In this document: positions 4,863 to 18,383 of the stretch, piece by piece | Numbering within the stretch: position 1 is the first letter of the stretch | How the letters are laid out: each line of letters opens with the position of its first letter | DNA from: a virus | DNA: 64,000 nt | Virus genome (UHGV): UHGV-1370141 | Strand: one strand, 5' to 3' | The notes under the pieces: model-generated | Seen by the model: the letters and a program-made list of their open reading frames with translations, nothing else | Told to the model about the DNA's origin: nothing | Database searches by the model: none | Position numbers and translations under genes: made by a program

Positions 4863-5186
4863 ATGCTTGAAGATTTTATTACCCTAAAAGAAATCATACC
4901 TGCGCCCTATACCAGCACCTGGAAAGTGCTGCACGATTACACAGATTTTCTGCGTAAACACCCACAAACTAAAGTAGAAACTGTAGACCCACGATTCAGT
5001 TATCCTGAGATTCACAATTTCTACGCTTATTGCAAACTGAAAGGTTATGCCGAAAACATCATCTACCCGATGATGCTACTCAATAACTTGGAAGACCCTA
5101 TGAACTTCACCCCTGAGATTACAGAGCTGATAGTTCCAGATGCCGGGGTCGTCGCCAGTATTCTTAGCACCATCGTAGACGATTAA
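4863..5186 (+). CDS. hypothetical protein
   Basis: 107-aa ORF on plus strand between divergent region and a bidirectional terminator; no recognisable motif. Confidence 0.4.
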   Translation: MLEDFITLKEIIPAPYTSTWKVLHDYTDFLRKHPQTKVETVDPRFSYPEIHNFYAYCKLKGYAENIIYPMMLLNNLEDPMNFTPEITELIVPDAGVVASILSTIVDD

Positions 5187-5221: not shown

Positions 5222-6601
5222 CTAGTACGAGCTCTTAAACGGACTCGTAGAAGCACTAGCAAATGGGTTGCTTGTACTACTACCAAATCCGCTAGACGAA
5301 CCAAACTGAGGCTGGCTGCCGAAAGAGCTGCCTCCGAATGATGAACCCCCGCCAAAAGAGTGCCCGCCACCAAACGTATTCGACAGCGAGTTCGGTTGAC
5401 CGAATCCACCTACGTCACCAAAACCGCTGTTCTTACGCTCGCCACCGAAAGCATCTACTACAGAAATCCGTCCTACCATTCCTGTACCAGCCAGGTTAGT
5501 TGTGTTGTGTTCTTCCACAAAACGCTGCATTGCTGGAGAAAGATTACCGAAGCTGTTCGTTGGAGTCATCCGTTGCTTACGCGCACGGAAGAACTCTACC
5601 GGATCGTCCAGGTTCGGCTTATCCGCATCAGACGCCTTCTTCGTCGGGATCTGTTCCGTTGCCGACGATCTGTCAATTCTGAACTCACGGGCACTGGTAT
5701 CACGCTCAGGATTGTCTGAACGTGGACCGGTGTTATACGGTAAGGTCTGGATGACATTATCGTAAATCTCCATGTTGTCCAGCTGTGAAATCCATTCATC
5801 GTCCAACGGGCGCAGTGGTGTGTGGTCACGTAGCCCTTTCACTACGTTATTGTAGTTTACCACGTACTGTGCCCAACCGCGTGCTAACGACCCGAAGTAC
5901 GGACGGGAATCGTTAGAACCGGTGACACTTGGATACCAACCGAACACAGTAGTCAGCAGGCGATGAATAATCACCTTATCCTGTTTACGTTGAAGCTTCA
6001 CCGAGAAGTACATTGCAGTACCGTCTAAGGATTCTTCTTCGAACATATGGCGATAATTAGCCACACGGTTAAACTTCACACCGTCGATAACTAAATCAGA
6101 TGCAATAAAGAGCTGGGTAACTTTGTGCTTTTTATCGCGCTCCAATAAGCCATAAACGTATTGTTTAACTGCTTCCCAGGATTTTACCAAACGATCGTCA
6201 AACGTCGGATCTTTCATCCCTTCACAAATCTGTTCCGTTAAGAACTTCTTGTACGCCGCAGAACGAATTGCTTTACCACTGGCAGCCGTTTCCAGAATAG
6301 CGTCAATCAACGCAAAGGAACGAATGAACAAATTCGCATTGATAGATTTCTTCAAGAAACGGATGGTGCCCGATTCACCGGCCAGCACAGATTCACAGAG
6401 AGGATGGAATGCCTGACATTCACGTCCATCGTCATCTTCCATTCCTTTCTTAATCATTGCCGACGTTGGAAGCGCCAGGCGGCGCTTCACTTTGTTGTAG
6501 GTAAATTCTGCTGGCTCACCGTCATCACGGGTAAGCAAATCGTTCTCGAAATCGAATCCTTGTGATTTAAGAAACGATTTATAGAATTCAATAATTTTCA
6601 T
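5222..6601 (-). CDS. hypothetical protein with C-terminal FG-repeat low-complexity tail
   Basis: 459-aa ORF; last ~90 aa contain ~9 FG dipeptides in S/G/N/Q-rich spacers (AFGG, GFGD, GGFGQ, TFGGG, SFGGG, SFGGS, SFGS, QFGSS, GFGSS). Confidence 0.65.
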   Translation of the reverse strand: MKIIEFYKSFLKSQGFDFENDLLTRDDGEPAEFTYNKVKRRLALPTSAMIKKGMEDDDGRECQAFHPLCESVLAGESGTIRFLKKSINANLFIRSFALIDAILETAASGKAIRSAAYKKFLTEQICEGMKDPTFDDRLVKSWEAVKQYVYGLLERDKKHKVTQLFIASDLVIDGVKFNRVANYRHMFEEESLDGTAMYFSVKLQRKQDKVIIHRLLTTVFGWYPSVTGSNDSRPYFGSLARGWAQYVVNYNNVVKGLRDHTPLRPLDDEWISQLDNMEIYDNVIQTLPYNTGPRSDNPERDTSAREFRIDRSSATEQIPTKKASDADKPNLDDPVEFFRARKQRMTPTNSFGNLSPAMQRFVEEHNTTNLAGTGMVGRISVVDAFGGERKNSGFGDVGGFGQPNSLSNTFGGGHSFGGGSSFGGSSFGSQPQFGSSSGFGSSTSNPFASASTSPFKSSY

Positions 6602-6622
6602 TTATTAATCCTTGATATTTTT

Positions 6623-8326
6623 TTACTCGCCGAAAGCGCCGAATACACCGCCTGCGGTGGAAATGTTGTCAGGAGCACCAAAGCTACCGAAAGAACCGAA
6701 GCTATTGGTAGGCGCAGCCGCTGCCGTAGGAATGTTGGACAGGATATTAGTCCGGTTTTGTCCACGGTTGAATTCCTGATAACCTTCTTCTACTTTGTTC
6801 ATCAGCTGTGCCGTTTCAACAGCCAACTGATTGGTGTAGTTAAGGTCAGTTGTCACCCCACTGTGGATACGCGCTTTCATGAACGATGCGAAAGTGTAAT
6901 ACTCAGGCATCTCACCATCGAGTTCAATCTCAATGCGCGTTACCACACCAACGATACAAGTTACTGTCATGCAGCAACGGATACGGTTGTGTTTGGTCAC
7001 TTGTAGCATCAAACCTTGGAGATCGCTCATGAAACGACGTGCTAATACATCCGGCAAACCTTCGTCTGTTAATGCACCGAGAGTGTGGTGAGCAACTTGC
7101 AGCATCGGTTGTGTGGAAATATCCGCCATGCGGTTATCGTAGAAGAAGGTAATCTCACCAATCAAGTTACGGGACACGATTGGGCCGAGTACCATCGCCA
7201 AATCAAACGCAACCAGAGAACCTTGGGTAGAATAGTTATTACGTCCTACCCAATCGTCGGTACGTTCAATCTCACCGAAACCACGGCGGTCAGCTACCGC
7301 TAGAGATTGCGAAATCGCAATATCCAAATCTTGCGGGTTCATGATTGCGTTACGCAAATCAGCTAACTTAAACGCTGCGCGGTTGACTGCGTTCCAACCA
7401 CCAGACACATCCGACGTCGCGTTCGTTAACGCGGCACGGAAAGCACGGATCAGTTCGTAGTTATTGAAATTGCGCATTACCCCGATTTGGTTCAGCTCAG
7501 ATTCCACGCCAAGAGAATGGTCACCTGCAAAGAAGCTGTCTACCGTGCTCAGCTCTGTTTCAATCCCCATCGTGTTGATGAAAGAATTCGCAATCGCTGT
7601 AACAAAAGACTCAGGACGAGTCAGTTGACCAGACATCAGCTGCGGCGCGGATTGACAGTTCGCAGAGATAACCGTTTGGTCATCGTAAGTGAACTTCTCA
7701 CCTGCGTTAATCAGATTACGAATCGTGGATGCTGCTTTTGCAGTAGAGATTGCATCGATGGTGTGTTCACTGTAGCTATCTACTGTCAGAGTTTTAGACA
7801 GCACGTAGTTATCAACCAGACGGAAAGAATCTGGGTTGATACGACGTCCCCCGAACGCATCGGTAATGTACGTACACTGCAAGCCGTAGATTTCATTGAT
7901 GTATAACACCATGTCATCTGGCAGGTGGTTAAATACGGAACGCTCTGCCTGGGAGGTATAACCCGAGACGACATAACGGGTTTCCTGCGTACGACTTTCG
8001 TTAATCACGTTACCTACGATAATCGCAACGAAGTTATACACGCCAGTGTCACGGGAATTATACTGGAATTGTACCGGACGAGATTCATCATCGCTTACGT
8101 TAATCAGCGGAGTTTCAACGCCGGTCGGAGTATTATCAAACCCTACAATCTGCCCTAACGCTTCTTGATAATCTCGAGTCTTGGTCGCATTCTCGCCGTG
8201 TTGCGCCACAACGTTTACGAGTTCATCTAAAGCGTACTTAGATTCAAAGAACCCAATACGACGACGAATCTGTTTAGGAATTTCGTACACTGGGTTGATT
8301 TGAAGCTTTAGAAGTTTCATTGCCAT
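6623..8326 (-). CDS. hypothetical protein with short C-terminal FG-repeat tail
   Basis: 567-aa ORF ending NSFGSFGSFGAPDNISTAGGVFGAFGE; SD AAAGGAG upstream of ATG. Confidence 0.65.
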   Translation of the reverse strand: MAMKLLKLQINPVYEIPKQIRRRIGFFESKYALDELVNVVAQHGENATKTRDYQEALGQIVGFDNTPTGVETPLINVSDDESRPVQFQYNSRDTGVYNFVAIIVGNVINESRTQETRYVVSGYTSQAERSVFNHLPDDMVLYINEIYGLQCTYITDAFGGRRINPDSFRLVDNYVLSKTLTVDSYSEHTIDAISTAKAASTIRNLINAGEKFTYDDQTVISANCQSAPQLMSGQLTRPESFVTAIANSFINTMGIETELSTVDSFFAGDHSLGVESELNQIGVMRNFNNYELIRAFRAALTNATSDVSGGWNAVNRAAFKLADLRNAIMNPQDLDIAISQSLAVADRRGFGEIERTDDWVGRNNYSTQGSLVAFDLAMVLGPIVSRNLIGEITFFYDNRMADISTQPMLQVAHHTLGALTDEGLPDVLARRFMSDLQGLMLQVTKHNRIRCCMTVTCIVGVVTRIEIELDGEMPEYYTFASFMKARIHSGVTTDLNYTNQLAVETAQLMNKVEEGYQEFNRGQNRTNILSNIPTAAAAPTNSFGSFGSFGAPDNISTAGGVFGAFGE

Positions 8327-8359: not shown

Positions 8360-10021
8360 TTACTGATTAAACCACGCCACTTCTTCACATTTCTTCCTGT
8401 TCTGAATTAACAGGAATTCTGCTAACATGTTCTGAAGTCGTGGGTGTGGTGTGTAGCCTAACATCACTTCTCCACTCCGAAGCATTCTTGCTGCTTCAGG
8501 TGTTGCCCTGAGATTGAAGTTAAACGGCGCAATATGTTCACGTACCAACAACGTCAAAGACGTCTTCAATGTTGACTGTTCGTAGATATTGCGATTGGTA
8601 CGGTATGCCTGAGGATAAAATCTATCCGATTTTATTTTGATCTCATTATCAATAGGTTCGATTGGATAACCCCCATTGTTGGGATCTAAAACCATTTCAC
8701 AGCTTAGCAACTGTGCAATCTCATGCATTCCGTAGTAGATATAAATCGCTTGTGCGATCCCCATTGCATTCTTAAACGCAGCAGCGTCAATGTCCTTATA
8801 GGTTCTGCGGTCAGCAAAGCGATGCAGTGCGGCTGCAACCAACCACTCGTACAGTTCGTAGAACGGATATTGATGATTCAGGTGAATAGAATCAATCAGT
8901 ACCTTAGCATCCGCAGGAGCGATATCGATCCCTAAGGAACGAACCACACGACGATAATCGTTGAAAAACTCTTGGGTACGAACAAACTCTTTCATCGGCG
9001 CTTTAGAGCGCGCTTGAACCAAGTCTATCGCACAAGTTTTCCCTTTCTCACCGTTAAACATAATCTTTTCAGGATGCGCTTTTAAGATGACGTTCTGTGA
9101 CGAAATCTTTCCTGCAAATCCTGTTTCGATTTCCTGCTTGATATTAAAGTACATCCCTGCAACGATGTTGTTCTCCACCATCGTACCTGGAGGTAACTCT
9201 GCGCCGATGAGTTTCATGGCGATTAAGCGAATCACCGCGAATGCCATGATGTACTCTTCCACCATATCCGTACCGTAACCACAGATAGAGGCCAGCACCG
9301 TTAAGTTCGCACTGTTCGGTCCTTTATTGCCACCGTCCTGTACTTTCGAAATCACCGACACTAAGAAGTCCCGCAATTTACTGATTGCAGGTAGTTGTGC
9401 TATCTCGGTGTCGTAAAGCAATTCCATGCAATGGGTTAAGTTATAAACGCTTTTCCGCTTGGAGTCCACAGCGGCGCGTGTTGTTGGGAAAGCATCCATG
9501 ACCAAGAATACCGGAATGAACGGTTTTACCATCAACGACAGTATGACCAGTTCGTAGTAGTCTTGTACGATATACGTCATCTCTTTCGGATAGTTAGATG
9601 ACATTTCTTCGTAAGTTTCGTGGACGTTTTGAGGAATCCACACGGAGCTTTGTGGATAGAGTTGGCGGAATCTGTCCGCGTGGTGGAATTTGGCAATTTG
9701 TGCAACAATCTCTGGCGCATGTTTACGAATCGTTTCGGGTTCTTCATTACCCAGCATTTCTAACTCTTCGTACGCCGAGAATAATTCTTCCTTTTCCTCC
9801 GACGTTAACGTTGACCAATAACGTTCGATTTCCATGAACATAATTTTGTCATGGGTAACCACTTTGCCGGAGCTATCGCGTACGTCTGGCACATTCGCAT
9901 CTTTGCGTCCATTACGGAATCCGTTAAACCCTACTTCCTTATCACCGTAACTAATAATGAGACGGTCGCGATTTTTCTCAATACGCATTTTAAAATCTCC
10001 AGGGATAACATAGTCGACCAC
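8360..10021 (-). CDS. hypothetical protein
   Basis: 553-aa ORF; track start is GTG at 10021, a more plausible start is the ATG at about 9988 (M12) preceded by GGAG. Confidence 0.6.
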   Translation of the reverse strand: MVDYVIPGDFKMRIEKNRDRLIISYGDKEVGFNGFRNGRKDANVPDVRDSSGKVVTHDKIMFMEIERYWSTLTSEEKEELFSAYEELEMLGNEEPETIRKHAPEIVAQIAKFHHADRFRQLYPQSSVWIPQNVHETYEEMSSNYPKEMTYIVQDYYELVILSLMVKPFIPVFLVMDAFPTTRAAVDSKRKSVYNLTHCMELLYDTEIAQLPAISKLRDFLVSVISKVQDGGNKGPNSANLTVLASICGYGTDMVEEYIMAFAVIRLIAMKLIGAELPPGTMVENNIVAGMYFNIKQEIETGFAGKISSQNVILKAHPEKIMFNGEKGKTCAIDLVQARSKAPMKEFVRTQEFFNDYRRVVRSLGIDIAPADAKVLIDSIHLNHQYPFYELYEWLVAAALHRFADRRTYKDIDAAAFKNAMGIAQAIYIYYGMHEIAQLLSCEMVLDPNNGGYPIEPIDNEIKIKSDRFYPQAYRTNRNIYEQSTLKTSLTLLVREHIAPFNFNLRATPEAARMLRSGEVMLGYTPHPRLQNMLAEFLLIQNRKKCEEVAWFNQ

Positions 10022-10121: not shown

Positions 10122-10763
10122 TTAGATAATGTCGTCAAAACTGCTGTCTGGTGCGGGTGCTTTTGTTGCCTGTTGGTTGTAACCACCGCCGTTATTGTTG
10201 CTATTATAGCCGCCACGACCGTAGCTACCGCCACCAGTGTTGTTGAACTCGCGAGGTTTATAGTTGTCACGGAAATCTTCCAGGAAGATATCAGCATTCT
10301 TAATAAACGCACGCAGAGTACGTTCTGCCAGTTCTAAATCAGAAACCTGTTGGCCATTACGGAAAACACGATAACCTTTCGGATAGGTGAAGTAGAATTT
10401 CTTCTGGCGTGCGCCAGCTCCTGGGATCTCACCACTGATAGCCATGAACGGCGTCAGGTTTTCATCGCGGCCTACGTGCAAGCTAACTGGCGATTTCTTC
10501 CCTTTAGCATCTTCCCATTTGTGAACGATTTTCTCTGCCTTAACCAACACGGTGCGCAGCGTTTCGAAAATGTCCACACAAACGGTATAGCCAGCAGTAA
10601 AATACAAACCTTCGCCTTTACCGAAAGAATAGCTGAACTTCATCAGCTCAACGTCACCGTTGAATTCGTTAAGCTCGATACCCAGTTTACGGGTACGTCC
10701 CTGCTGATCTGGTTCGGTTTGCGGGTAAAGATATTTTTCTTTAAAGAAGTTTTTGTTAACCAT
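10122..10763 (-). CDS. hypothetical protein with Gly/Tyr/Asn-rich disordered tail and acidic tip (SSB-like tail architecture)
   Basis: 213 aa; C-terminus NTGGGSYGRGGYNSNNNGGGYNQQ...SSFDDII resembles the Gly-rich linker plus acidic tip (DDDIPF) of SSB proteins; the N-terminal domain was not recognised. Confidence 0.55.
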   Translation of the reverse strand: MVNKNFFKEKYLYPQTEPDQQGRTRKLGIELNEFNGDVELMKFSYSFGKGEGLYFTAGYTVCVDIFETLRTVLVKAEKIVHKWEDAKGKKSPVSLHVGRDENLTPFMAISGEIPGAGARQKKFYFTYPKGYRVFRNGQQVSDLELAERTLRAFIKNADIFLEDFRDNYKPREFNNTGGGSYGRGGYNSNNNGGGYNQQATKAPAPDSSFDDII

Positions 10764-13904: not shown

Positions 13905-14492
13905 TTAGCAGGACGCACCAAGTTCTGAACAGGGATCTTCATCTTCCCAGTCAAAACTTCGCATACGTGCCCAGTTAATCTGCATGTCAACTTGCTGAAC
14001 GCGAGTAAGTCGATTGGAGCGATCTTCGTTGGATACCCAGTTCCAGATACGATCCTCGTCGTACTCCGTTGACATACCTGACGTAACTTCACGATAGTTA
14101 TCGTCAGTGTGCATGTACGCCGAGCCTCGGAATCGGTCTACCTTAGAGTAACCGTTCTCAAAGCCCGTCGCCATGTTATTGTTGTAGAGCTGTCGGTATT
14201 CCGGCATTGCAATTAAGAACGGTTGTAACGCCTCATTCGCAAACTGGAATTGCCCGATAGTTTCAAGTTGTCTTACTACATTCGTTGCATCGCTATTTTG
14301 AACCTTACGCGCAGCTGCGTACATTTCGCGGAAACGTTGCAATGAGATCAGTTCATTACACTTCTGCTTCACGCGCTCAACCATATCCGGTGCGAAACTA
14401 GACAGGTTAAAGTTCTCTTTGAAATAACGATACATACCGCTATTTTCGTCTTGACGCTGCCAAATAGACCCGCCTAGATTCCACATGCCCAT
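13905..14492 (-). CDS. hypothetical protein
   Basis: 195-aa ORF. Confidence 0.5.
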   Translation of the reverse strand: MGMWNLGGSIWQRQDENSGMYRYFKENFNLSSFAPDMVERVKQKCNELISLQRFREMYAAARKVQNSDATNVVRQLETIGQFQFANEALQPFLIAMPEYRQLYNNNMATGFENGYSKVDRFRGSAYMHTDDNYREVTSGMSTEYDEDRIWNWVSNEDRSNRLTRVQQVDMQINWARMRSFDWEDEDPCSELGASC

Positions 14493-14498
14493 GTTTTA

Positions 14499-14738
14499 CT
14501 ACCCCGCCATTAAGATTAATTCTGAGTCGATGGCGATACCCGCCTCCAGATCTTCTTCGGTATCGCGTAAGAAACGGTTTTCCATGCTGATAAGCTCATT
14601 GTGTAACACCATGCTGCTAGACACTTCGTCTACGTTTGTGCTGGACATAAATCCGTTATCTGGGCGATAAGCCAGCGCCAAATCCATCTCCGTGGTATCG
14701 ACTAAAAGTCTAACCTGTAATTGGTCGCCGTCGAAATC
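14499..14738 (-). CDS. RNA polymerase beta' N-terminal-like subunit, exon 2 (starts at the DFDGD catalytic triad)
   Basis: Frame of track ORF 14499..14783 from codon 16 onward: DFDGDQLQVRLLVD...GFMSSTNV aligns with beta' [15 protein letters not shown]...MMSTNNI. Confidence 0.75.
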   Translation of the reverse strand, partial: DFDGDQLQVRLLVDTTEMDLALAYRPDNGFMSSTNVDEVSSSMVLHNELISMENRFLRDTEEDLEAGIAIDSELILMAG

Positions 14739-15088
14739 CTGTTTGTCCACTCCATTCCTTTTGGAGCAGGTGTGCAATGACACCCTCCCATGTTTTCACA
14801 TGGGCACAGACTATATCATAACCGTAGGTATTGCTACCCGTAGGTCTCCCCCACTTCGCCGCTAAACTAAGCAGCTACTCTACTCGGTTTTACCCTTTCG
14901 ATAGTCGTTGAACGATTTTCATCGCTGCTGGTTATCCATTATCACAACCCTTAGCATTATTGGTTAGCATAGGCTATCTTACGAATTGTTTCTGACTTTC
15001 GCCACCCTGTCGGGATCGTAAGCTTTAGGAGTTTCCAGCAATTCGAGGGATACGCACTAGAGGTTTCCCGTCTAGTGGGCCAAATTTT
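14739..15088 (-). ncRNA. group I self-splicing intron (ORF-less, about 350 nt) interrupting the RNAP beta'-like gene
   Basis: Separates ...KAPNA from DFDGDQ...; 5' exon ends in U, intron ends in G; contains P-like ACGGGAAAC, Q-like AUCCCGACAG, R-like GUUCAACGACUA and S-like GAUAUAGUCU elements with complementary GACUA/UAGUC (P7). Confidence 0.8.
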
Positions 15089-16456
15089 AGCATTCGGAGC
15101 TTTGATGACGCGATCGGAGATACGTAACGAACACTGTGTAACATCAGGGTTAACAGCTGAGATAAATAATGTCTGAATAGACAACTGTACAAGCGTCGGG
15201 TTTCGTAGCGCTGATATCATCAGGCCGTAACCGCCACGAGACTCCTTAATAAGTTCGTTGATAATTTCATGAACCAACGGTACGTACTGCATTGATGCAA
15301 ATGCAATAACACGTTCACACTGCCGTGGTGTGAAGTTCCGTCGACCGAGTTTGTTTTCAATAGCTACAGATTCTAACGTCACTAGCCAACGCCAAGGTGC
15401 AATAACCTTCATAGCGTCATGCGGTTCTGAGATTGGAGAGATTGTTACACGACCACCCCACGGGATGTGTGTTGAACCTAACTTGGCACGATAGAATCCA
15501 GGTTTACCTTCCATCACCTCCTGACGATGGTCAATATAGAAGTACGCTAACTGGCGATTTGCTTTTAATGCGCGACTAATAATGAAATGGGTTGGGATGC
15601 GTCGTGCATTAGTATAAAGTAACGCGATGTTCTTAACCGCGTCTATTGCACCGGTATAAACAGGATCGATAAAGATACCCTGACGTCGTTCCTCCGTAAC
15701 GATCAGTTTGGGTGAAATGATTGGAAGATGAACCGGAAAGAAAGTGTGTGATTGTTCTTCGAAGAACTTTTTCCACTCTAAGCGAGTACGTTCGCTCTCA
15801 TATCGGTTATTTTTCGTTGGTGGATAAATTTCTTTCCAGACTTCAGGAGAAGTTAAGATATTGAATATTGTTCGATGGTGGTCAATAAAATTCCTAATGC
15901 CGCGTGGAACTTGATACTCGCTAAAGATACGTTTGATTATTCGGGATCGAGTACCTTCGTCTTTATCAGGTTTATAGCACGGATCTAACATCCACATCAA
16001 TAAATCAGAACCACGTTCTACGGTCACTTTGTTTCGGTTAAACTTCTTAAGTTTAGAACCGAAGAAAGCGTTAAACATCGACCAGAATCGTGGGTTAATA
16101 AAGTTGCCTATTTCCTCCGGGGCACGAATCCAGACTTCTGAAACAATACGATGTTCTGTCACTACATAGCCGCAGGTAGGACATCGCATACCGAGATTAT
16201 ATCGATGAACGATAGGTGCTTCACAATCAATACTACAAATGGGTGCCGAATTTAGCGTCTCGTCGACTGTCCGGTTCTGTAAGATTCGGTTAATCAACTC
16301 TGACGTCTCAATGGTGTCTTTATATTTCGCAACATCATTGATAATCATCGGCGGTTTATAGCCCTTTTCCTCCGCCTCTTTGAAAGCGTCACGTAACATT
16401 TTATCGTGACTGATTAATCGCCCTGATACACCGAAGTATTGTAATCTGTCTTTCAC
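15089..16456 (-). CDS. RNA polymerase beta' N-terminal-like subunit, exon 1
   Basis: GFYRAKLGSTHIPWGGRVTISPI resembles [32 protein letters not shown] resembles NRAPTLHRLGIQ; Cys cluster CPTCGY near the N-terminus; exon ends ...RVIKAPNA immediately before the catalytic motif. Confidence 0.75.
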
Positions 16457-16544: not shown

Positions 16545-18383
16545 TCAGACAGGGCTGTAGTTACCGGAAGCGAATGACATGTTGTAGTCACTGCCGAAGG
16601 AGTTCGGGCCGTTACCAGACAGAGTGAAGTTTTCACCGCCGTTGTTGAAGAACAACGTATTAGCCAGGCTATTGACTGCGGTAACACCATTCACTTGGAA
16701 GATGCAGTTATCACGCACGTAGTCCAGCAGCGCTTTGGCGAATTTCGGGTTGATTGCCAAATCGGTGGACTCGCCAGTTACGACCGGCTGTTTGCTGCCG
16801 AACAGGGAAGCGGCCAGCTTCAGCAGGTACAAACGCTGTTCAGTCGCGTTGAACTGACGGTGTGAGTAAGATTGCGCGTACAGGTAAGTGTAGGCATCGT
16901 GTTGGTTATCACCAACTTTGCTCAGAACAGACACCAGGTCCTGATCCTGGAAGCTACGTTTCTGGCTGTTGCTGAAATACTGACCGGAAACAGTCGGTAC
17001 GCCAGCGATAACAACGTGGTTGCAGGTGATGGTATTAACTTTCAGCATTTCAGCGAAACGCTGCGTGAACACCGTAGCACCTTTCGGAGCCATGTTGTCC
17101 AGGATGGTCAGGATGTTAGACAGTGTACCAGTGTTACCCTGGGAAACTTCACTGAACATCGTGGAGAGACCACCGATACCGTTACCAGCACGATGGTTCA
17201 CAACCAGCGCAGCTTCTGGGTAGGCGAACATGTTCAGGCACTCTTCGATAGCTTCGCGGTTGCCATCGATTTTGCTCAGGTCCGGACGTTTGTCACCCCA
17301 CTCTACGTATTCCATAACGCGGGAGAAACGACGATCGGTTTTGTTGAGAGAGTGCATGAAGCGTTCACGCCAGCCACCGATAGCGGCGATTTCTGCAAAG
17401 GCGGCCAGTTCAATCAGCTGACGTTCGATTGGTACCATAGCCCCGGAAGACTGAGAGTCCATCAGAGAAACAACAACTTCTGCTTGCAGCTGTTTGTAAT
17501 CCTGTACGCCATTTTCAGGTGCACGGCGGCCAGTGTAACGCAGGTTGATGTAACCCACACCCGCAACGCTCGGATAACCCTGAACACGTTCAGAGGACAT
17601 CAGCGTCGGGTTAGTATCGAAGCTACCGGTCTGAGTGTGTTCAACCTGAACCATCAGGTCAGCACGTTGTGCAGAGCCGTTAACGTCAGTCAGAGAACCT
17701 TCGTCTACCGCAGTTACCTGTGCAACGAAGCGATCGCCACGAGTCAGTTTCAGCTGACCCAGGTAGCCCGGAATACGGCCAAAGATACCCAGAGTCAGCT
17801 GACCCATCAGCTGGATAGCCCACTCTTCGGTCAGCGTTTTACCCAGGTCTGGAATGCAGTTCATTACCATGAATTGCACAGACGACAGGTTCTGCTGTTC
17901 GCAGATTTGTTTGGTGATGGAATCCATTACGCCAGCCTGACCGAACAGAGATGCCAGGGTGTAATAAGTTTCTTTACCGTTGATTTCACGGAAGCGTACA
18001 GACTGACCGTGTTCGAAGAACAGGATACCGTACATCCAGTGGCTGCCGTTTTCATCTGCTGGCGCAGCAACGTATGCCGCAGAACCCATTTCTGGATTCA
18101 CACCATCGATAACACCGCAGCGGAATTTGCTCAGGTACGGGTTACGTTCAACCATCTTCGCAATCAGCGCGGTGAAATGTGAAGCGGCAGAAACGTAGGA
18201 CATATAGCCGAACGCTTTATCGAAAGTGGAGATATTCTTAGACATACCACCGAAAGCATTTGCTGCGTGGGTGTTATCCACACTGCCTGCACCAGCACCT
18301 ACACCACCAAAAGACGGAGCCGGGTCTACACCAGCAGCGCCAGCATTTACGTTGTTAGGAATTTCGTTAAACTCTTTAGCCAT
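16545..18383 (-). CDS. highly expressed major protein; candidate phage-nucleus shell protein (chimallin-like) or capsid protein
   Basis: 612 aa with strongly optimal codon usage (ctg, cgt, ggt, aac), Gly-rich N- and C-terminal extensions, tandem promoter motifs upstream and a strong terminator downstream; no diagnostic motif recognised. Confidence 0.35.
   Translation of the reverse strand: MAKEFNEIPNNVNAGAAGVDPAPSFGGVGAGAGSVDNTHAANAFGGMSKNISTFDKAFGYMSYVSAASHFTALIAKMVERNPYLSKFRCGVIDGVNPEMGSAAYVAAPADENGSHWMYGILFFEHGQSVRFREINGKETYYTLASLFGQAGVMDSITKQICEQQNLSSVQFMVMNCIPDLGKTLTEEWAIQLMGQLTLGIFGRIPGYLGQLKLTRGDRFVAQVTAVDEGSLTDVNGSAQRADLMVQVEHTQTGSFDTNPTLMSSERVQGYPSVAGVGYINLRYTGRRAPENGVQDYKQLQAEVVVSLMDSQSSGAMVPIERQLIELAAFAEIAAIGGWRERFMHSLNKTDRRFSRVMEYVEWGDKRPDLSKIDGNREAIEECLNMFAYPEAALVVNHRAGNGIGGLSTMFSEVSQGNTGTLSNILTILDNMAPKGATVFTQRFAEMLKVNTITCNHVVIAGVPTVSGQYFSNSQKRSFQDQDLVSVLSKVGDNQHDAYTYLYAQSYSHRQFNATEQRLYLLKLAASLFGSKQPVVTGESTDLAINPKFAKALLDYVRDNCIFQVNGVTAVNSLANTLFFNNGGENFTLSGNGPNSFGSDYNMSFASGNYSPV

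Follow-up and report, generated by a model that had tools for sequence, protein, structure and literature searches.

In the 64,000-nucleotide stretch of UHGV virus genome UHGV-1370141 that we analysed (the window in what follows), two adjacent genes encode proteins of 459 and 567 amino acids (aa) that end in tails rich in phenylalanine-glycine (FG) dipeptides. The 567-aa protein is an ortholog of PicA/Imp1 (PhiKZ gp69), a protein import factor of the phage nucleus, and the 459-aa protein is an ortholog of PhiKZ gp70 and PhiPA3 gp64; FG tails under motif-level constraint are carried here by orthologs of shell-associated import-machinery proteins. From their composition, motif order and structure models, both tails are predicted to be intrinsically disordered sticker-spacer segments, with F as the sticker and uncharged G/S/N/Q spacers. 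The protein families involved (PicA/Imp1, gp70/gp64, ChmC and ChmA) are known. Searches of the literature for FG repeats, disorder or low complexity in connection with PicA, chimallin or the phage nucleus turned up no earlier description, and the tails go unmentioned in the PicA paper, the Imp1 preprint and reviews (the journal version of the Imp1 paper was outside the scope).

The 459-aa protein ends in AFGGERKNSGFGDVGGFGQPNSLSNTFGGGHSFGGGSSFGGSSFGSQPQFGSSSGFGSSTSNPFASASTSPFKSSY, whose 76 aa include 20 S, 19 G and 11 F; G directly follows 9 of the 11 F, as compared to a mean of 2.75 FG when the tail is shuffled (P=3e-5). The 35 residues at the end of the 567-aa protein, PTAAAAPTNSFGSFGSFGAPDNISTAGGVFGAFGE, have G after all five F, versus 1.0 FG expected by shuffling (P=8e-5). 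FG-rich C-terminal tails on these two adjacent open reading frames (ORFs) were the central claim of a first-pass annotation of this DNA, and the counts (nine FG over 76 residues and five over 35, both non-random) bear it out. FG spacing is tight in both tails (median ~6 residues) and charged residues are few, the charge being nearly nil beyond residue 397 of the 459-aa protein. When the 107 ATG-started ORFs of the window (each at least 60 aa) were ranked by FG density, the top three 40-aa stretches were the two tails and the N-terminus of the 612-aa chimallin. DNA slippage or gene conversion as the origin of the repeats was considered and rejected: Tandem Repeats Finder reported no tandem DNA repeats in the tails, no long DNA match was found between the two tails (direct repeats were just 12–18 nt), and the codons for FG as well as those flanking them differ from repeat to repeat, so the periodicity is maintained at the protein level. 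According to AlphaFold2 models built with family alignments, residues 1–530 of the 567-aa protein and 1–290 of the 459-aa protein are confidently folded, while the predicted local distance difference test (pLDDT) score is 31–40 for residues 531–567 of the former and ~35 for residues 385–459 of the latter; all tail residues are below 50, so the disorder that the first-pass annotation had put forward for checking is indeed predicted.

Lack of conservation in orthologs was an outcome that the first-pass annotation had named as speaking against its idea. A homolog search for FG conservation gave a divided answer: the low-complexity tail is conserved and FG itself is not, being replaced by L in Asesino and SPN3US and by M/Q/P-rich sequence in PhiKZ-like phages. 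Among close homologs, FG in both proteins is confined to the window clade (the window and two ENA metagenome contigs ~80% identical to it), in which FG is also found in the N-tail (FGG...AFGG) and the C-tail of chimallin. Tails in this clade are 38–59% identical versus 82–86% for the folded parts, yet 4–9 FG are retained. The tails of Asesino, phiEaH2 and SPN3US contain LG/LLGG, those of Machina and Caitlin GNSLLD with RLGGLGG, and those of Kwan SLLGG; the gp70 tails of CR5 and Phobos contain NNPF and their PicA tails GF/FSFG, and more distant relatives in the same group have NPF(G) or MFG/LFG tails. The gp70 tails are Met/Gln/Pro-rich in PhiKZ and PhiPA3, and Q/P-rich in RAY and Psa21 (in RAY also Met-rich). 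In the complete Asesino genome (246 kb, 644 ORFs), the two densest sticker-G stretches lie on the PicA and gp70 orthologs. Because the FG order is non-random, disorder is predicted, FG is kept in relatives despite the divergence of the tails, and the densest sticker-G stretches of a whole genome sit on the same two orthologs, the tails look selected rather than accidental.

The sticker type switches together in the PicA and gp70 tails and, in part, in the chimallin tails. Both PicA and gp70 have F as the sticker in the window clade and again in CR5 and Phobos, whereas both have L in Asesino, SPN3US, Machina, Caitlin and Kwan. We counted F and L in the C-terminal 40 residues of PicA and the C-terminal 70 of gp70, with the following results for the two tails: F5 L1 and F10 L1 (window), F0 L9 and F3 L12 (Asesino), F0 L8 and F1 L15 (SPN3US), and F4 L2 and F8 L2 (CR5). 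Across 14 genomes, the F fractions of the two tails are correlated (Spearman rho 0.83, a statistic that ignores phylogeny). A neighbour-joining tree of the gp68-like protein has F as the earlier state of the supergroup and shows two switches, F to L once and then L to F in the window clade, each of them in both proteins. A general shift in F/L usage was rejected, as the folded parts have the same F and L content in both clade types. In chimallin, the N-tail motif is APSFGG in the window versus APLGG in Asesino and SPN3US. As a prediction test, four further metagenome loci were fetched (L022 and L023, picked for their FG-rich gp70-family tails, and L024 and L025 as their relatives), and all four have F-type tails in both proteins; L023, for example, has NNPFG in the gp70 tail and NPFG...NNNPFGG in the PicA tail. 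Sharing of k-mers between the tails forms clade-level blocks and is weak per single genome save in Machina and Caitlin, which have motif pairs of their own: GNSLL occurs in both Machina tails in different codons, and GNSIL in both Caitlin tails with 13 consecutive identical nucleotides, a pair in which micro-conversion could have been at work. The C-terminal tips of PicA and gp70 are nearly identical in PhiPA3 (...VADLGLL and ...GGGLGLL) and in 201phi2-1 (...VANLGLL and ...GNGMGLI), and may represent a shared terminal docking motif.

To place the 459-aa protein in its wider family, we surveyed the gp70 family in a representative library of 1.84 billion proteins (E up to 1e-10), which gave 478 representative clusters with homology limited to profile positions 1 to ~300; 147 representatives were examined. 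All 147 have a low-complexity tail, and the median entropy is 3.35 bits in the last 80 residues versus 3.96 bits in residues 101–180. The tails fall into Q/P-rich (53), mixed-charge R/D/S (38), G/S/N/T-rich (20) and other (36) classes. At least three FG are found in 10 of the 147 tails versus none in a control region, with FG-rich tails having arisen in several lineages, and at least three [FLMYW]G in 66 tails versus one. Some tails are strongly nucleoporin-like, e.g., P0081 with MFGAPQQASN four times and P0079 with SLFG/GLFG. The resemblance to nucleoporins is a clade-specific variant within a broader sticker-spacer scheme. We note that the 38 mixed-charge tails (in the P0084–P0121 range) consist of R/D/S/E repeats such as DRRDYRDDRRDYR or RSRDRDSRR, that some others (P0085 and P0091) are RGG-FG-like, and that such tails recall the RS, mixed-charge or GAR domains of eukaryotes and are opposite in chemistry to the uncharged FG tails. 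We also note that P0043–P0047 and P0075–P0078, from Salmonella phages SPFM5–SPFM20 (GenBank LR5359xx), are block-scrambled gp70/PicA orthologs in which 20-residue blocks stand in reversed order (in one protein the profile match is broken into 15 stretches); the pattern would be expected if some records had their 60-nt sequence lines entered last to first, and looks like a database artefact rather than biology.

We identify the window as the core gene block for the phage nucleus in a chimallivirus; the named phages closest to it are SPN3US of Salmonella and two phages of Erwinia, Asesino and phiEaH2. The block encodes chimallin, non-virion RNA polymerase subunits, Imp3, ChmC/Imp6, PicA/Imp1 and the gp70-family protein (Table 1), with identities assigned by PHROG families common to PhiKZ proteins together with strict gene order. 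The order ChmC-gp68-PicA-gp70 is held in fourteen named phages (including PhiKZ, PhiPA3, 201phi2-1, Goslar, RAY, Asesino and SPN3US) and six metagenome loci, and the PicA ortholog sits between the gp68-like and gp70-like genes, in a block that has non-virion RNA polymerase genes on either side. Family phrog_3141 is matched over nearly the full length by both the 567-aa protein (E 1.1e-125) and PhiKZ gp69 (E 2.7e-179); pairwise BLASTP between the two gave no alignment at E up to 10, so their connection runs via profiles only. The gp68 ortholog has no low-complexity tail, and its C-terminus is ordinary in all relatives. Since the Imp3 ortholog is present as well, every member of the proposed import core (Imp1, Imp3 and Imp6) is encoded in the window, along with chimallin.

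The 612-aa protein is identified as chimallin by its homology, across the full length, to Asesino gp39, which forms a ring around phage DNA when tagged with green fluorescent protein (PMC11724907). Its C-terminal part aligns (E ~1e-26) to metagenome proteins carrying the Pfam family Chimallin_Phikzvirus; the protein itself has no Pfam match at E up to 0.01 and belongs to a PHROG unlike that of PhiKZ gp54 (phrog_4795), as fits a diverged SPN3US-type chimallin. With this chimallin and split RNA polymerases in the window, the phage is of the nucleus-forming kind, a possibility that the first-pass annotation had raised. The Gly-rich tails that it had listed on the 213-aa and 612-aa proteins are both present: the chimallin has APSFGG and ANAFGG in its N-tail and NSFGS in its C-tail, and the 213-aa ChmC/Imp6 ortholog has a tail rich in N, G and Y that leads into an acidic end of S/D/E (NNTGGGSYGRGGYNSNNNGGGYNQQATKAPAPDSSFDDII), a layout that agrees with the published ChmC tail (PMC11077065). 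Of the four proteins with Gly-rich tails, one is chimallin, and the other three have counterparts located at the phage-nucleus shell or periphery.

Table 1. Features of the window, with strand and family assignment
Feature	Coordinates	Strand	Remarks
107-aa gene	4863-5186	+	phrog_3455; between gp70-like and RNA polymerase beta genes
459-aa ortholog of PhiKZ gp70 / PhiPA3 gp64	5222..6601	-	phrog_3520; BLASTP E 2.9e-13; counterparts nuclear-shell-associated
FG tail of gp70 ortholog	5225..5452	-	residues 384-459; 9 FG in S/G/N/Q spacers; predicted disordered
567-aa ortholog of PicA/Imp1 (PhiKZ gp69)	6623..8326	-	phrog_3141; phage-nucleus protein import factor
FG tail of PicA/Imp1 ortholog	6626..6736	-	residues 531-567; 5 FG; predicted disordered
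553-aa ortholog of PhiKZ gp68	8360..10021	-	phrog_3209; BLASTP E 1e-9; non-virion RNA polymerase subunit
213-aa ChmC/Imp6 ortholog (PhiKZ gp67)	10122..10763	-	phrog_3284, common to PhiKZ gp67
195-aa Imp3 ortholog (PhiKZ gp59)	13905..14492	-	phrog_3254, common to PhiKZ gp59
ORF on one side of the intron	14499-14783		part of non-virion RNA polymerase beta-prime gene
Group I intron	14787-15099	-	Rfam RF00028; 63.7 bits (gathering score 50); E 1.4e-15
ORF on the other side of the intron	14957-16456		part of non-virion RNA polymerase beta-prime gene
612-aa chimallin (ChmA), nuclear shell protein	16545..18383	-	phrog_8316; 57% identity to Asesino gp39
499-aa non-virion RNA polymerase subunit, PhiKZ gp55-like			phrog_2987
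Tail-fiber ORF	59543-64003	+	runs off window end; Asesino gp261 counterpart

Other features of the window were noted in passing. The small phrog_3455 gene lies on the strand opposite to the gp70-like gene, and a gene of similar size is found in the same place and orientation in Asesino (gp50), SPN3US (SPN3US_0033), 201phi2-1 (gp127) and Goslar (gp172); all relatives whose locus reaches beyond gp70 have a counterpart, except PhiKZ and PhiPA3. The group I intron splits the non-virion RNA polymerase beta-prime gene just ahead of its catalytic DFDGD motif, with the uninterrupted Asesino gp40 (533 aa) aligning to the two exons by residues 6–456 and 445–530, and the same gene is split in both metagenome relatives of the FG clade. 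The very large Asesino gp261 counterpart, annotated as tail fiber, has a hydrophobic glycine-zipper segment (PLVGPIVSILGTVGSILGKVAKWGIF) with a high sticker-G dipeptide score; this segment is neither polar nor low-complexity, and is thus unrelated to the FG tails.

Published work on the counterparts places them at the shell. PhiPA3 gp61, gp63 and gp64 (counterparts of ChmC, PicA and gp70) are early proteins found at the nuclear shell, ChmB co-purifies with gp63 and gp64, and the PicA and gp70 counterparts are not among the proteins of an earlier virion mass spectrometry study of PhiPA3. A virion structural identity for the tail-bearing proteins, which the first-pass annotation had named as the outcome that would speak against its idea, is rejected by this shell localisation together with the orthology. 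In PhiKZ, gp70 is classed as a nuclear protein, and Imp1 forms puncta at the nuclear periphery, binds Imp6 and is needed, via distinct interfaces, for import of every cargo tested, with Imp3 proposed as a third core component of the import system (Kokontis preprint). Import selectivity maps to Imp1 interfaces and surface patches of folded cargo, not to tails. Knock-down of picA abolishes plaque formation. The N/G-rich tail of ChmC is required for condensates in vitro, and its removal abolishes them (PMC11077065). Chimallin assembles via flexible terminal segments that dock on neighbouring protomers.

With slightly less than even confidence, we propose that the tails are selected sticker-spacer segments whose weak multivalent contacts at the shell tether PicA and gp70. 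The tails would make weak multivalent hydrophobic contacts with one another, and also with the short sticker-G motifs in the disordered N- and C-terminal tails of chimallin; PicA and gp70 would thereby be held and enriched at particular places on the shell (compare the puncta seen for PhiKZ Imp1), and the choice of cargo would stay with the folded part of PicA. An interaction that needs matching stickers would explain the joint change of stickers in partner proteins, and we count the neighbouring ChmC, whose low-complexity tail drives condensation, as a precedent. The tails may have the role in partitioning or in a condensate that was first suggested from the sequence.

Several observations weigh against this proposal. 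The tail mechanism rests on sequence patterns, and PhiKZ gp70 was not pulled down with Imp1 when the two were co-expressed in E. coli (Kokontis preprint), although weak multivalent contacts could be missed by a pull-down. Many gp70-family tails are Q/P-rich or R/D-rich instead of hydrophobic-G, so no single chemistry explains all tails. In Goslar, RAY and Eowyn, PicA lacks a low-complexity tail, so not every phage requires one on this protein. The sticker covariation amounts to just two or three independent switches, uncorrected for phylogeny, and F and L are one nucleotide apart, which makes such changes easy.

The tails would work most like the ChmC/Imp6 tail, and like cohesive FG domains by analogy only. 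The ChmC/Imp6 tail is likewise a low-complexity, Gly-rich and predicted-disordered C-terminus on a shell-associated protein, two genes off, and it is the sole experimental precedent of tail-driven condensation in the phage-nucleus system; it differs in being N/G with Y and R, in having an acidic end and in acting with RNA, whereas the FG tails are uncharged and have hydrophobic stickers. The 567-aa protein shares with PicA/Imp1 of PhiKZ (gp69) and PhiPA3 (gp63) its PHROG family, its gene position and its co-occurrence with chimallin, Imp3 and Imp6, but the PhiKZ tail is ~30–45 residues long, Q/P/N-rich and has one FG, as compared to five FG in 35 residues in the window. PhiKZ gp70 and PhiPA3 gp64 have the same arrangement of a folded N-terminal domain of ~290 residues and a long low-complexity C-terminal region as the 459-aa protein; their tails are Met/Gln/Pro-rich ('Med15' in one record), unlike the FG in S/G/N of the window. 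The chimallin segments (N-tail, NTS, CTS1 and CTS2) are also flexible and terminal, and their sticker-G motifs change with the PicA and gp70 tails; they are single ordered docking peptides, whereas the PicA and gp70 tails are repetitive.

Nucleoporin FG domains comprise hundreds of residues and tens of repeats with uncharged polar spacers. Likeness to them, which the first-pass annotation had pointed out in composition, holds for the predicted disorder and for FG in uncharged S/G/N/Q/T spacers, as in FG nucleoporins of the GLFG/SxFG type (Nup98/Nup100, Nsp1), and for the placement of the proteins at the boundary of a genome compartment with selective protein import. It does not hold for length, homology or FG conservation: the window tails are ~10-fold shorter with tighter spacing, there is no membrane pore scaffold and there are no known transport receptors, F is not conserved among orthologs, and searches of the tail-bearing proteins against Pfam and PDB sequences returned nothing relevant and no homology to nucleoporin families. 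With no such homology, tails that are far too short and FG that is not conserved, the window proteins are not nucleoporins.

Of the other explanations, the one that we take most seriously, though we consider it unlikely, is that the repeats (SFG, LGG, GNSLLD, NPFG) are short linear motifs docking in a pocket of a folded receptor (the chimallin core, ChmB or the site of the chimallin C-terminal segment), which would make the tails multivalent anchors or mimics and not cohesive polymers. The two tails of a genome do have true motifs in common, beyond composition (GNSLL/GNSIL, the NPFG of L023 and the LGLL of PhiPA3), NSFGS is found in both the PicA tail and the chimallin C-tail of the window, and docking of flexible terminal segments is how chimallin itself assembles. 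The PicA tips KLKF, GLKF, KYKF and GFKL also look like the chimallin tips QLKF, QFKF and NFKL, but this similarity is not significant in a permutation of same- versus cross-genome pairs (P 0.18–0.42), for which reason copying of the chimallin tip of the same phage by PicA was rejected, and the tips of the window clade are unlike each other (FGAFGE in PicA, GNYSPV in chimallin). Improbable in our judgement is that the tails are disordered appendages of a neutral or generic sort (acting as linkers, solubility tags or entropic bristles), that their composition drifts with lineage and that the FG pattern does nothing specific. Fast tail evolution, the wide variation across the family and the PicA orthologs without a tail would agree with this, as would the absence of PhiKZ gene 070 from the excerpted hit table of an antisense oligonucleotide (ASO) screen, in which inclusion of the gene is unchecked. 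However, G comes after F at a frequency well above what composition predicts, the sticker type persists across divergence that scrambles the rest of the tail and switches jointly in two or three proteins with the folded parts unchanged, such tails are found on just these two proteins in a 246-kb genome, and every one of the gp70-family representatives examined has a tail.

A true nucleoporin-like barrier, in which the FG tails of PicA, gp70 and chimallin fill an opening of the shell as a selective phase in which licensed cargo dissolves, convergent with the FG meshwork of nuclear pores, seems to us quite improbable. The uncharged, predicted-disordered FG repeats, their placement on an essential importer and its shell-associated neighbour, the still more nucleoporin-like repeats of relatives (four MFGAPQQ in P0081, SLFG and GLFG in P0079) and the repeated gain of FG-rich tails in the gp70 family argue for it, but tails of 35 and 76 residues with 5 and 9 FG are very short against the hundreds of residues in nucleoporins, orthologs replace F by L, M, Q/P-rich and even R/D-rich tails or, in some PicA, lack the tail, selectivity maps to Imp1 interfaces and folded cargo, and no counterpart of transport receptors is known. 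A related idea, to which we give slightly more room while still doubting it strongly, is a convergent miniature of the nuclear-pore FG phase: the short cohesive tails of PicA, gp70 and chimallin would form a local selective phase where import takes place in the shell, with a sticker chemistry (F, L, M or Q/Y) that co-evolves among the partners and could also set up a compatibility barrier among co-infecting phages. Least probable of all is that the gp70-family tail serves mainly RNA handling, forming a joint condensate with phage mRNA and ChmC/Imp6 close to the non-virion RNA polymerase so that the mRNA is exported, with FG as one way in. The gp70 gene is located among the ChmC and RNA polymerase genes, the RNA condensates of ChmC depend on its own tail, and mixed-charge R/D/S or RGG-FG-like tails, typical of RNA-associated condensates, make up 38 of the 147 examined; against this, the ChmC sticker (Y in N/G context) is unchanged across the F/L switch, the folded part of the 459-aa protein yielded no match to an RNA-binding fold, and the tail of this protein is almost uncharged, making direct RNA binding unlikely.

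PicA/Imp1 is essential and selective, and the passage of folded proteins through the closed lattice of chimallin is the central problem of phage-nucleus biology; to our knowledge, no pore or translocation mechanism is known for this import. Disordered tails with hydrophobic stickers that change together on PicA and its shell neighbour give a concrete experimental handle on the process. If the tails organise import sites, FG-like low-complexity polymers would have been put to use twice, independently, where a genome compartment is bounded, and the tails would account for the joint travel of the ChmC, PicA and gp70 genes.

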